This document shows positions 16,514 through 53,597 of a DNA stretch of 64,000 bases, piece after piece. The position numbers and the translations under genes are program-made. Source of the stretch: Eledone cirrhosa (lineage: Eukaryota); NCBI GenBank assembly GCA_964016885.1, contig OZ024766.1, positions 7,626,001-7,690,000 of the forward strand. Reading direction: 5' to 3'. Each line of letters starts with the position of its first letter. The first letter of the stretch is position 1. The notes beneath the pieces are model-generated. The model was not told where the DNA came from and did not search any database. It saw only the letters and a list, made by a program, of their open reading frames with translations.

Positions 16514-16559
16514 CCGTATTGTCCCCTTTTCTAGCGTGCCCTTGTGGCTAATAAAGAAA
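16514..16559 (+). mobile_element. Tx1-family extreme 3' end fragment in (TATC)n
   Basis: ttgtcccc..gtgcccttgtggctaataaagaaa matches the 3' terminus of the full-length elements. Confidence 0.7.
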
Positions 16560-16734
16560 TATATCTGTCTGTCTGTCTATCTATCTATCTATCTATCTAT
16601 CTATCTATCTATCTATATCTATCTATCTATCTAACTATATCTATCTATCTATCTATCTATCTATCTATCTATCTATCTATCTATCTATCTATCTATATCT
16701 ATCTATCTATCTAACTATATCTATCTATCTATCT

Positions 16735-17358
16735 CGGGCGTAGCCGATCTGTGGGGCTATGTCGAACAACTGCTGTCAAGGGTGGGACCGATCCGGTTGA
16801 CCACCGAGTCTATTGTAATGATCAAGCCGCCTCCCCCCTTCAAAGATGAAGCAGAGGCGGTGTTTCTGTGCGTAATAGCCATGGCGAAAGAGGTTGTATG
16901 GTGGACGCGTCTGAAAGGACTGAGGTCAGGCACCTTTCTCTCTGGCCAACAACTGGTCCGTTTCTTCCGATATCATTTCGGAAGAAGGATCAGGATGGAG
17001 AGAGAGGTGCTGCACCCCAGCCGTTTTTATGAAAGGTGGGTGAAAGTGGCGAGAATGGCCCGTGTGAATGGGCCTTCTCTTTACATAAGCCTGTAGGTGG
17101 AAAAGAGGAAGGAACGAGGGAGCACCCCCTCTCTGTGCTCCTGAGGAAAAGGGTTGCACACTTTTTTCGGGGGTGTGTGCGACCCCCCAAGGCGCCTCCT
17201 CTCTATTGAGGATTTTGTTAAAAATTTTATTTTTTGTTATATCTTATTTTATTTTTATATTTTGTTATTGCCTCCTCCTTATTGAGGACGCCTTTTTGTG
17301 TAAACTCCCCCCTTTGTACTTGTCCCACTTTTGATGCCCTAGTGGCAAATAAAAGAAA
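16735..17358 (+). mobile_element. 5'-truncated Tx1-family LINE (ORF2 C-terminus plus 3' UTR) in (TATC)n
   Basis: GVADLWGYVEQLLSRVGPIRLTTESIV..SLYISL* aligns with the end of ORF2 at 44991. Confidence 0.92.
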
Positions 17359-17386
17359 CTTATCTATCTATCTATCTATATCTATC

Positions 17387-50192: not shown

Positions 50193-50403
50193 TTCTATTA
50201 GTTTGCCGTAATAAATTTTTAACTGGAAAATTCGCCCCAAAAAGGGGCGAAAATAAATAAACTCAAAGTTTGACGACCAAGGCAAGGGGTTAACGTATAT
50301 TACAGTATAAAAAAATTAATCAAAACTCACTTTTTGAGTAAGTAAATCCGACTCGGTAGCCGAGCTTGTTCACACACGTCAACACACGTCTCTCGTATAC
50401 GAG

Positions 50404-53360
50404 ATGTTATGTGAGATATTATGTGAGGTAAAGCCTTTACTGTGAAAATACAATAGTATATATAGAGTAATGTAAATGTTATGTGAGATATTATGTGAGG
50501 TAAAGCCTTTACTGTGAAAATACAATAGTATATATAGAGTAATGTAAATATTATGTGAGGTATTATGTGAGGTAAAGCCTTTACTGTGAAAATACAATAG
50601 TATATATAGAGTAATGTAAATGTTATGTGAGATATTATGTGAGGTAAAGCCTTTACTGTGAAAATACAATAGTAAATATAGAGTAATGTAAATGTTATGT
50701 GAGATATTATGTGAGGTAAAGCCTTTACTGTGAAAATACAATAGTATATATAGAGTAATGTAAATGTTATGTGAGATATTATGTGAGGTAAAGCCTTTAC
50801 TGTGAAAATACAATAGTATATATAGAGTAATGTAAATGTTATGTGAGATATTATGTGAGGTAAAGCCTTTACTGTCACAATACAATAGTATATATAGAGT
50901 AATGTAAATGTTATGTGAGATATTATGTGAGGTAAAGCCTTTACTGTGAAAATACAATAGTATATATAGAGTAATGTAAATGTTATGTGAGATATTATGT
51001 GAGGTAAAGCCTTTACTGTGAAAATACAATAGTTTATATAGAGTAATGTAAATGTTATGTGAGATATTATGTGAGGTAAAGCCTTTACTGTGAAAATACA
51101 ATAGTATATATAGAGTAATGTAAATGTTATGTGAGGTATTATGTGAGGTAAAGCCTTTACTGTGAAAATACAATAGTTTATATAGAGTAATGTAAATGTT
51201 ATGTGAGATATTATGTGAGGTAAAGCCTTTACTGTGAAAATACAATAGTAAATATAGAGTAATGTAAATGTTATGTGAGATATTATGTGAGGTAAAGCCT
51301 TTACTGTGAAAATACAATAGTATATATAGAGTAATGTAAATGTTATGTGAGGTAAAGCCTTTACTGTGAAAATACAATAGTATATATAGAGTTATGTAAA
51401 TGTTATGTGAGATATTATGTGAGGTAAAGCCTTTACTGTGAAAATACAATAGTATATATAGAGTAATGTAAATGTTATGTGAGATATTATGTGAGGTAAA
51501 GCCTTTACTGTGAAAATACAATAGTATATATAGAGTAATGTAAATGTTATGTGAGATATTATGTGAGGTAAAGCCTTTACTGTGAAAATACAATAGTATA
51601 TATAGAGTAATGTAAATGTTATGTGAGGTATTATGTGAGGTAAAGCCTTTACTGTGAAAATACAATAGTATATATAGAGTAATGTAAATGTTATGTGAGG
51701 TAAAGCCTTTACTGTGAAAATACAATAGTATATATAGAGTTATGTAAATGTTATGTGAGATATTATGTGAGGTAAAGCCTTTACTGTGAAAATACAATAG
51801 TATATATAGAGTAATGTAAATGTTATGTGAGATATTATGTGAGGTAAAGCCTTTACTGTGAAAATACAATAGTATATATAGAGTAATGTAAATGTTATGT
51901 GAGATATTATGTGAGGTAAAGCCTTTACTGTGAAAATACAATAGTATATATAGAGTAATGTAAATGTTATGTGAGGTATTATGTGAGGTAAAGCCTTTAC
52001 TGTGAAAATACAATAGTATATATAGAGTAATGTAAATGTTATGTGAGGTAAAGCCTTTACTGTGAAAATACAATAGTATATATAGAGTTATGTAAATGTT
52101 ATGTGAGATATTATGTGAGGTAAAGCCTTTACTGTGAAAATACAATAGTATATATAGAGTAATGTAAATGTTATGTGAGATATTATGTGAGGTAAAGCCT
52201 TTACTGTGAAAATACAATAGTATATATAGAGTAATGTAAATGTTATGTGAGATATTATGTGAGGTAAAGCCTTTACTGTGAAAATACAATAGTATATATA
52301 GAGTAATGTAAATGTTATGTGAGGTATTATGTGAGGTAAAGCCTTTACTGTGAAAATACAATAGTATATATAGAGTAATGTAAATGTTATGTGAGATATT
52401 ATGTGAGGTAAAGCCTTTACTGTGAAAATACAATAGTTTATATAGAGTAATGTAAATGTTATGTGAGATATTATGTGAGGTAAAGCCTTTACTGTGAAAA
52501 TACAATAGTATATATAGAGTAATGTAAATGTTATGTGAGGTATTATGTGAGGTAAAGCCTTTACTGTGAAAATACAATAGTTTATATAGAGTAATGTAAA
52601 TGTTATGTGAGATATTATGTGAGGTAAAGCCTTTACTGTGAAAATACAATAGTAAATATAGAGTAATGTAAATGTTATGTGAGATATTATGTGAGGTAAA
52701 GCCTTTACTGTGAAAATACAATAGTATATATAGAGTAATGTAAATGTTATGTGAGGTAAAGCCTTTACTGTGAAAATACAATAGTATATATAGAGTTATG
52801 TAAATGTTATGTGAGATATTATGTGAGGTAAAGCCTTTACTGTGAAAATACAATAGTATATATAGAGTAATGTAAATGTTATGTGAGATATTATGTGAGG
52901 TAAAGCCTTTACTGTGAAAATACAATAGTATATATAGAGTAATGTAAATGTTATGTGAGATATTATGTGAGGTAAAGCCTTTACTGTGAAAATACAATAG
53001 TATATATAGAGTAATGTAAATGTTATGTGAGATATTATGTGAGGTAAAGCCTTTACTGTGAAAATACAATAGTATATATAGAGTTATGTAAATGTTATGT
53101 GAGGTAAAGCCTTTACTGTGAAAATACAATAGTATATATAGAGTTATGTAAATGTTATGTGAGATATTATGTGAGGTAAAGCCTTTACTGTGAAAATACA
53201 ATAGTATATATAGAGTAATGTAAATGTTATGTGAGATATTATGTGAGGTAAAGCCTTTACTGTGAAAATACAATAGTATATATAGAGTAATGTAAATGTT
53301 ATGTGAGATATTATGTGAGGTAAAGCCTTTACTGTGAAAATACAATAGTATATATAGAGT
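50404..53360. repeat. 72-bp minisatellite, middle segment (about 42 units, some 60-bp variants)
   Basis: Unit tgtgaggtaaagcctttactgtgaaaatacaatagtatatatagagtaatgtaaatgttatgtgagatatta. Confidence 0.96.
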
Positions 53361-53597
53361 GGTTTCTTTATTTGCCACTAGGGCACAAAAGGTAGGGACA
53401 GATACAAGGGGGGAAGTTTACATATAATTAACGAGTACAAAAATATAACAATGAAATAACAACAACAAACGAAGTCCTCAATAGGGAGGGGGCATTAACA
53501 TGGGTCGCACACACCCCGGAAAAAATGTGTAACCCTTCTCCTCAGGAGCACAAAGAGTAGGTGCTTCCCTCGTCTCCGCTTTTTCCTCTTCTTTCAC

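Follow-up and report, generated by a model that had tools for sequence, protein, structure and literature searches.

What does a retrotransposon recognize when some of its copies end in a simple microsatellite and others at one fixed base of the tandem repeat inside a DNA transposon? This question is raised by a 64,000-nt stretch of Eledone cirrhosa DNA (contig OZ024766.1, positions 7,626,001–7,690,000; hereafter the window), in which copies of one family of long interspersed nuclear elements (LINEs) lie both in (TATC)n and in the 72-mer repeat of a piggyBac-type miniature inverted-repeat transposable element (MITE). We posit, with a probability of roughly 0.55, that the family is a Tx1-type LINE whose usual target is (TATC)n/(GATA)n and whose young full-length subfamily has moved to a look-alike site in the MITE. 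BLAST and tblastn searches of the window with a full-length copy as query recovered seven pieces of the family and none further, four of which (e1, e2, e3 and f4) are stacked head to tail on the plus strand at 16.5–18.25 kb. The pieces and the TATC tracts beside them are as follows.

16488–16513, plus strand: 5′ copy of the duplication at e1, 26 nt, 24/26 identical to 16562–16587
16514–16561, plus strand: e1, a 48-nt 3′ tip of the LINE and the oldest copy, terminating in AATAAAGAAA-TA
16562–16734, plus strand: higher-order (TATC)n array, the 3′ flank of e1 and the 5′ flank of e2
16735–17360, plus strand: e2, 5′-truncated, the final 119 codons of open reading frame (ORF) 2 plus the 3′ untranslated region (UTR), terminating in AATAAAAGAAA-CT
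17390–17543, plus strand: e3, a 5′-truncated fragment of the 3′ UTR
17597–18250, plus strand: f4, an internal ORF2 fragment with TATC at its 5′ end, its 3′ end lost
37746–37923, plus strand: e4, a 5′-truncated fragment of the 3′ UTR, of the e3 subfamily (94%)
37924–39503, plus strand: TATC/TA/TC microsatellite, the 3′ flank of e4
44754–50403, minus strand: c1, a full-length LINE of 5650 nt
53361–58999, minus strand: c2, a full-length LINE with 5′ and 3′ junctions as in c1

The motif AATAAA(A)GAAA occurs at seven places on the two strands of the window; six belong to 3′ ends of the family (+16550, +17348, +17532, +37912, −53372 and −44765), and the remaining one, at +12953, falls within the ORF of an unrelated LINE. 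All six ends follow the pattern that an initial annotation had read from the DNA, with the very bases it had listed: the motif, four bases and TCTAT (once TCTGT), with a poly(A) tail at none of the six. Four ends fall within (TATC)n. The other two fall within the 72-mer, and among the 144 strand-positions of its unit TCTAT occurs once. The four intervening bases had been taken as variable, and here the description needs amending: the four positions are present, but the last two belong to the target, being the TA of TATC or the AC of the 72-mer unit (...CATT-AC-TCTAT...), so that the rule becomes AATAAAGAAA-N2 followed directly by target. The two bases left on the element side (TA, CT, TA, CA, CC and CC) roughly track subfamily; at 17348 (e2) and 37912 (e4) the first of them is possibly target-derived or microhomology, AAC being found in both flanks. 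The single TCTGT belongs to e1, which is 74–80% identical to the other family ends over 47 nt, and it reflects a target unit altered to TGTC, which recurs in the 5′ flank of e1 as part of the target-site duplication. With the junction placed after N2, ATAGA on the nicked strand stands 3–7 nt from the nick. All four TATC ends share the same TATC phase (by chance, (1/4)^3 = 0.016) and the same strand (by chance, (1/2)^3 = 0.125), and the six ends together represent three loci only, at 16.5–17.6 kb, at 37.9 kb and in the MITE array.

Was TATC there before the element arrived? It adjoins all five truncated 5′ ends, and a motif search of both strands found no family 3′ end upstream of e1 or e4. In the duplication at e1, three non-TATC units occupy matching places in both copies, and TGTC/TCTC units of this kind appear in none of the 53 other units of that array. 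The duplication at e3 is perfect over 21 nt (17369–17389 and 17544–17564) and includes a six-base variant unit, that at e2 is perfect over 17 nt or spans 21–22 nt with a one-base gap, and the entire 5′ TATC tract of e4 (37725–37745), at 20–21 nt, has the length of a duplication. Removing one copy at e2 (17 nt) and at e3 (21 nt) restores three regular higher-order units, whereas a model without duplications leaves an orphan block in the e2/e3 array. The duplications of the TATC copies range over ~17–26 nt, mostly near 21, and two of them (e1 and e3) are marked by variants in both flanks, so that (TATC)n must have pre-existed and is not a tail made by the element. These duplications show that at least 20 nt of TATC preceded insertion at both TATC loci.

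The family occupies both TATC loci of the window (2/2) and none of the 69 other microsatellite loci (6959 bases; Fisher P 0.0004), in a test made post hoc and on TATC loci partly lengthened by the insertions themselves; the suggested avoidance of other microsatellites is thus borne out within the window. Arrays of TC and TTC are among those 69 loci and contain no family end, so a target of the type used by the Tx1 elements Kibi and Koshi was not found here. In the accessible part of PMC4494074, a Tx1 target preference is recognized where one sequence type makes up >20% of flanks; here 4/6 family ends fall in TATC and 2/6 in the MITE array, from three loci only. Taken together, the pre-existing TATC with its duplications, the five of five 5′ ends and the contrast of 2/2 with 0/69 loci give good support to the targeting of GATA microsatellites that the initial annotation had proposed. 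Its further claim, that the endonuclease reads ATAGA/TCTAT, is unproven, given the distance of ATAGA from the nick and given that pairing of a read-through RNA yields the same register. Indeed, the register is silent on what the endonuclease reads, because RNA pairing in a periodic target fixes the register wherever the nick falls. Similarly, the idea of one junction rule for all copies stands for the 3′ side and fails on the 5′ side, where the TATC copies have 17–26-nt duplications and the full-length copies lose 7 nt.

The full-length copies interrupt the tandem array of the MITE, which in the window comprises:

5734–6525, unstranded: an empty MITE copy with TTAA at both ends, terminal inverted repeats (12/14) and 8.9 units of the 72-mer
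44484–44753, minus strand: array C, 3.8 units of the 72-mer, the 3′ flank of c1
50404–53360, minus strand: array D, 42 units of the 72-mer with internal higher-order duplications, separating c1 and c2
59000–59878, minus strand: array E, 12 units of the 72-mer, and the end of the MITE, TTAA then CCCTTTAGCATT

Because the empty copy has TTAA ends and terminal inverted repeats, the 72-mer array belongs to a piggyBac-type non-autonomous element. Both c1 and c2 are inserted at the identical base of its unit, and the description of this site as a TATC look-alike proved apt: compared in register, it ranks first of 144 strand-positions by two measures and ties with three others by a third, the ranking having been made post hoc. 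Duplications of 21 and 22 nt at the full-length copies were considered and rejected, with 10 and 16–17 mismatches, respectively. A 65-nt duplication at c1 (7 lost and 65 gained being equal modulo 72) is disfavoured, and a 7-nt deletion is preferred, because two variants of unit C1 are absent from D42; c2 is uninformative in this respect. TATCT at the 5′ junction in 3/5 ends fits both a 7-nt loss and a 21-nt duplication, but a second-strand geometry shared by the two settings (7 lost or 21 duplicated, in the same TATC phase) was rejected as well, since the variant-marked duplications span +17 to +26 and the agreement in phase therefore provides no link to the 72-mer. As to whether c1 and c2 stem from one event, flanking units C1–C4 and D1–D4 differ far more than c1 and c2 do, which speaks against it; on balance we lean towards independent insertions, although the two were counted as a single event in our statistics.

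Array D also contains 60-nt short units and repeated blocks of variants, pointing to recent internal duplications between c1 and c2. The 5′ junction of each full-length copy falls within a perfect 14-nt palindrome (50391–50404 and 58987–59000), and the four bases before the core of this palindrome are ATCT, as in 3/5 TATC 5′ flanks; noticed post hoc, this match is a weak hint that the founder may have come from a TATC site. A second element has the same MITE end, beginning TTAA-CCCTTTAGCATT (21000–25153), but carries a different array, a 61-mer in 67.6 copies, with no LINE inside.

The two full-length copies are 99.5% identical, differing by 10 substitutions and three indels (1, 15 and 3 nt), and both ORFs are open. 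In c1, ORF1 (50192–48450) and ORF2 (48428–44991) lie in one frame with a single TAG between them. ORF2 combines an N-terminal APE endonuclease, a reverse transcriptase (RT) and a C-terminal CCHC zinc finger (Pfam PF03372, PF00078 and PF13966), with all catalytic residues kept (N17, E46, Y119, D148, N150, D209, H234 and YADD), and its best solved relative in a PDB search is human L1 ORF2p at 186 bits, R2 proteins reaching at most 85 bits. ORF1 has a single CCHC knuckle at residue 349 (PF00098, E 0.0075, under the curated cut-off). Such a knuckle in ORF1 is typical of Tx1 and is not known from mammalian L1. These predicted domains support a two-ORF APE-type LINE of the L1/Tx1 group, the Tx1 label itself resting on architecture and site preference. 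Among named proteins, one of the octopod Argonauta hians comes nearest (67% over the RT); in a tree built from 35 chosen rows, which includes no named Tx1 reference, the element groups with it at a support of 100/99, and this points to a probable octopod host. At the protein level e2 is 88% and f4 is 89% identical to c1, and any database match is at most 70% identical; being closer to c1 than any such match, e2 and f4 are sister subfamilies of it. None of the TATC-flanked copies extends to the endonuclease domain. Within the window, no Rfam family reached its gathering score, hence no known ribozyme at the 5′ end.

How might one lineage come to use both sites? In polyadenylation, RNA is cut some bases beyond AAUAAA. 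We suggest that the endonuclease nicks the GATA strand and that the LINE RNA, ending some bases past AAUAAA, would carry UAUC from the flank of its own donor copy. This UAUC would pair with the freed DNA end and prime reverse transcription, which would fix the register and leave poly(A) uncopied, and a second nick ~21 nt further on would generate the duplication. The likeness of the 72-mer to TATC would then explain the arrival of a founder in the MITE array, after which flank sequence carried on the RNA, probably together with changes in the endonuclease, would maintain both junctions of the full-length subfamily; the carried flank and the probable endonuclease changes would also be why its 5′ junction, with 7 nt lost, differs. 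The proposed step resembles one suggested for SART1Bm and R1Bm, in which target-matching RNA pairs with the nicked strand and sets the start of copying; these differ in being R1-clade elements with telomeric repeats and 28S rDNA as targets, and SART1 copies its poly(A) tail (accessible part of PMC7265360).

Several observations weigh against this reading. The evidence is drawn from only three loci, and no element-free TATC locus exists in the window, which leaves it without an empty-site control. The full-length copies have no duplication of the kind seen at the TATC copies, and their 5′ junction lacks 7 nt of the unit; with no full-length TATC copy in the window, this difference may be one between full-length and truncated copies and not between subfamilies. 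At equal distance from the LINE, units D36 and E6 have a variant in common (~2/42 by chance), which makes a single event possible for c1 and c2, and two further arrays of the 72-mer, of 9 and 16 units, stand empty. Among the duplications, that of e3 is weak alone, six-base variants occurring in ~1 unit in 8, and those of e2 and e4 need a gap or are indistinguishable from plain repeat.

A single unchanged endonuclease that reads ATAGA on the nicked strand, with TATC and the 72-mer both as targets and no switch, is the alternative that survives best, although we consider it unlikely. It would account for five identical bases at equal distance in all six ends and for the first rank of the 72-mer site among 144, with 8/12 downstream bases in register, and R1Bm is described as reading ~5 nt on the upstream side and 3 nt on the downstream side of its nick (accessible part of PMC1919474). 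The geometry fits if the nick directly follows ATAGA and all four bases derive from the RNA, but in TATC and the 72-mer alike the two bases preceding TCTAT agree with the target, and ATAGA is thereby moved 3–7 nt off the junction. Nor does one enzyme easily yield 5′ geometries of +17 to +26 in one setting and −7 in the other, with the C1 variants missing from D42. Moreover, TCTAT occurs 198 times outside TATC arrays and is mostly unused there, so that these five bases cannot be the whole rule.

A switch carried out by RNA would place the weight elsewhere: a single mis-insertion at the look-alike site, then transcripts carrying both flanks that guide the junctions, the endonuclease changing little or not at all. 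We regard this version as rather improbable; under it, target identity would pass on through flank RNA, and the move from a microsatellite to a transposon target, which Tx1 families have made several times, could be tested with subfamilies that are ~89% identical. More doubtful still is that the two targets are unrelated, the TATC subfamilies being GATA-specific, the full-length subfamily having its own target or descending from a chance insertion duplicated with its array, and TCTAT being coincidental. The differing 5′ geometry, the identical junctions and 99.5% identity of c1 and c2, the variant common to D36 and E6 and the post hoc choice of the look-alike test would all sit well with such a history, but coincidence would have to produce the best of 144 sites on two measures in the correct phase and on the correct strand, and the flanking units do not show the repetition that duplication predicts. 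Finally, that the element makes TATC as its own tail, as CR1/L2 families do, and seeds microsatellites with it, without any target preference, is hardly credible: both TATC loci of the window begin at or beside an element end, none is element-free, and e1 and e4 sit at the 5′ edges of their arrays, but this possibility, which the initial annotation had itself raised, fails against target-site duplications whose variants recur across e1 and e3, TATC 5′ of all five truncated copies, the lack of a family end upstream of e1 or e4, and full-length copies without a TATC tail.

The reading that we prefer, of a TATC-targeting family with a relocated subfamily, can be set against more distant relatives. 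A contig scan yielded 48 loci, of which 41 come from record CAXXMW01 (L001–L039, L042 and L044); the junction count excludes the seven others, which are partial or 27–32% identical, and one of these (L040) has no AATAAA within 1.5 kb. The CAXXMW01 relatives have an ORF2 40–44% identical to that of the window LINE and a homologous ORF1 (E 2e-13), and their 52 distinct 3′ ends consist of GTGCC, a stem-loop with covarying arms, AATAAA and a short extension, with poly(A) in 0/52. Three TATC or GATA units are present in 0/41 loci. AATAAA followed by a few bases without poly(A) is therefore no sign of GATA targeting, because relatives without TATC have the same; it was rejected as a mark of the GATA target for being lineage-wide. 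By this comparison the structure of the end is an old feature of the lineage, which the TATC target is not. The GTGCC, stem-loop, AATAAA and short extension, the lack of poly(A) and the head-to-tail stacking are common to these relatives and the window LINE, which are distinguished by the pure tandem arrays, the longer 3′ UTR and the mostly 11-residue endonuclease loops of the former. Within the arrays, copies run 16–18 nt past AATAAA into a spacer, and a spacer of this length stands on both sides of full and 5′-truncated copies alike; it resembles a duplication as long as those in the window.

The record is filed as a bacterial metagenome-assembled genome and holds long head-to-tail arrays of several Tx1-like families with a 6.4–6.8 kb period; since they are made of LINE arrays, the contigs are probably host DNA. 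At L005, ORF1 is divided between two frames. No host target of the CAXXMW01 arrays was found, and Rfam gave no family at gathering score in 9/41 related loci. The loop just mentioned probes the minor groove (accessible part of PMC1950540); it has 9 residues in c1 and c2 and in P0042, a 64% relative, and among the 13 relatives of the sister branch giving a match it has 11–12 residues in 11 and 9 in two. A search of the ESM Atlas returned only unnamed RT/endonuclease clusters without taxa.

The site of Tx1L in Xenopus laevis lies in an internal tandem repeat, and Tx1L makes a 23-nt duplication, a size matched by the 17–26 nt of the TATC copies and not by c1 and c2, which have no duplication and lost 7 nt. 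Like c1 and c2, Tx1L occupies one fixed site in a non-autonomous piggyBac-type element, Tx1D, and its groove-probing loop has 11 residues instead of 9 (accessible parts of PMC4494074, PMC1950540 and PMC1919474). According to the accessible part of PMC4494074, families of the Tx1 clade insert into (TC)n, (TTC)n, (TTCC)n, (TTTC)n, U2 genes, Mariner and Harbinger, and Xenopus Tx1 into a non-autonomous piggyBac. Kibi and Koshi of teleosts and the crocodilian Tx1-1_Crp group are, like the window LINE, APE-type LINEs in pyrimidine-leaning microsatellites, but theirs are (TC)n, (TTC)n, (TTCC)n and (TTTC)n where the window LINE has (TATC)n. The same source describes Tx1-Mar and Tx1-9_AMi of crocodilians at fixed places in Mariner and Harbinger, indicating that Tx1-clade targets change; the alternative sites there have no recognisable similarity, whereas the window targets look alike and belong to subfamilies 88–89% identical.

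We found no GATA- or TATC-targeting Tx1 in a literature search that covered neither most subscription papers nor Repbase, so that absence from print is not established. TATC/GATA would thus extend the range of targets within an established class of site-specific retrotransposons, the concept itself not being new. A 2026 annotation of Octopus vulgaris lists 13 recently active L1-Tx1 families with 421 insertions, and its accessible part does not use the word "target" (PMC13282606); in the literature searched, the present target is the first that we could find for any cephalopod L1-Tx1 family. For targeted gene insertion, site-specific LINEs are the natural models, and the way in which their targets change is described as still open in the accessible part of PMC1950540. 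An intact young full-length element together with close subfamilies at a similar target forms a rare pair with which to test whether endonuclease or RNA flank decides the site.

Within the element, the end of ORF1 (48440–48498, minus strand, including the stop codon and the spacer before ORF2) is complementary to the start of the 3′ UTR (44904–44963), 3.5 kb away. The predicted duplex of c1 has 48 pairs at −71.9 kcal/mol, tops 215 windows and is reached in score by 0/100 local shuffles; the complementarity is present likewise in c2, and the UTR of e2 still pairs at −60.2. Such a duplex could control read-through or re-initiation, or alternatively the complementarity could be an old inverted copy. 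It was found in 0/10 related loci tested of the 41, with two weak matches (E 0.067) elsewhere. The 3′ UTRs of c1, e2, e3 and e4 also share a four-pair hairpin ~130 nt before the end, with a two-sided change in 2/4 sequences, and a longer stem enclosing AATAAA in which two pairs show two-sided change, a weak signal from few sequences.

The elements discussed here probably all lie in introns of a large host gene on the plus strand, which has an open stretch of 1118 codons at 59879–63235 and probable exons near 39511–39765 and 44157–44356. This stretch matched no Pfam family and no longer homolog; an Atlas lead to PF21013 (LOC400499) is the only one. At 39504–39765 (plus strand) the TATC/TC array of e4 stops 7 nt short of what is probably a splice acceptor of the host, the exon having been read by eye, and the array may serve as the pyrimidine tract of that acceptor. 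Elsewhere in the window, an RTE-like LINE ORF of 1043 open codons (11702–14833, plus strand), flanked by (AT)n, keeps its endonuclease motifs and has an altered RT (Asp to Asn in motif A and YADD to IIED), which makes it a candidate for a domesticated, RT-dead LINE gene.

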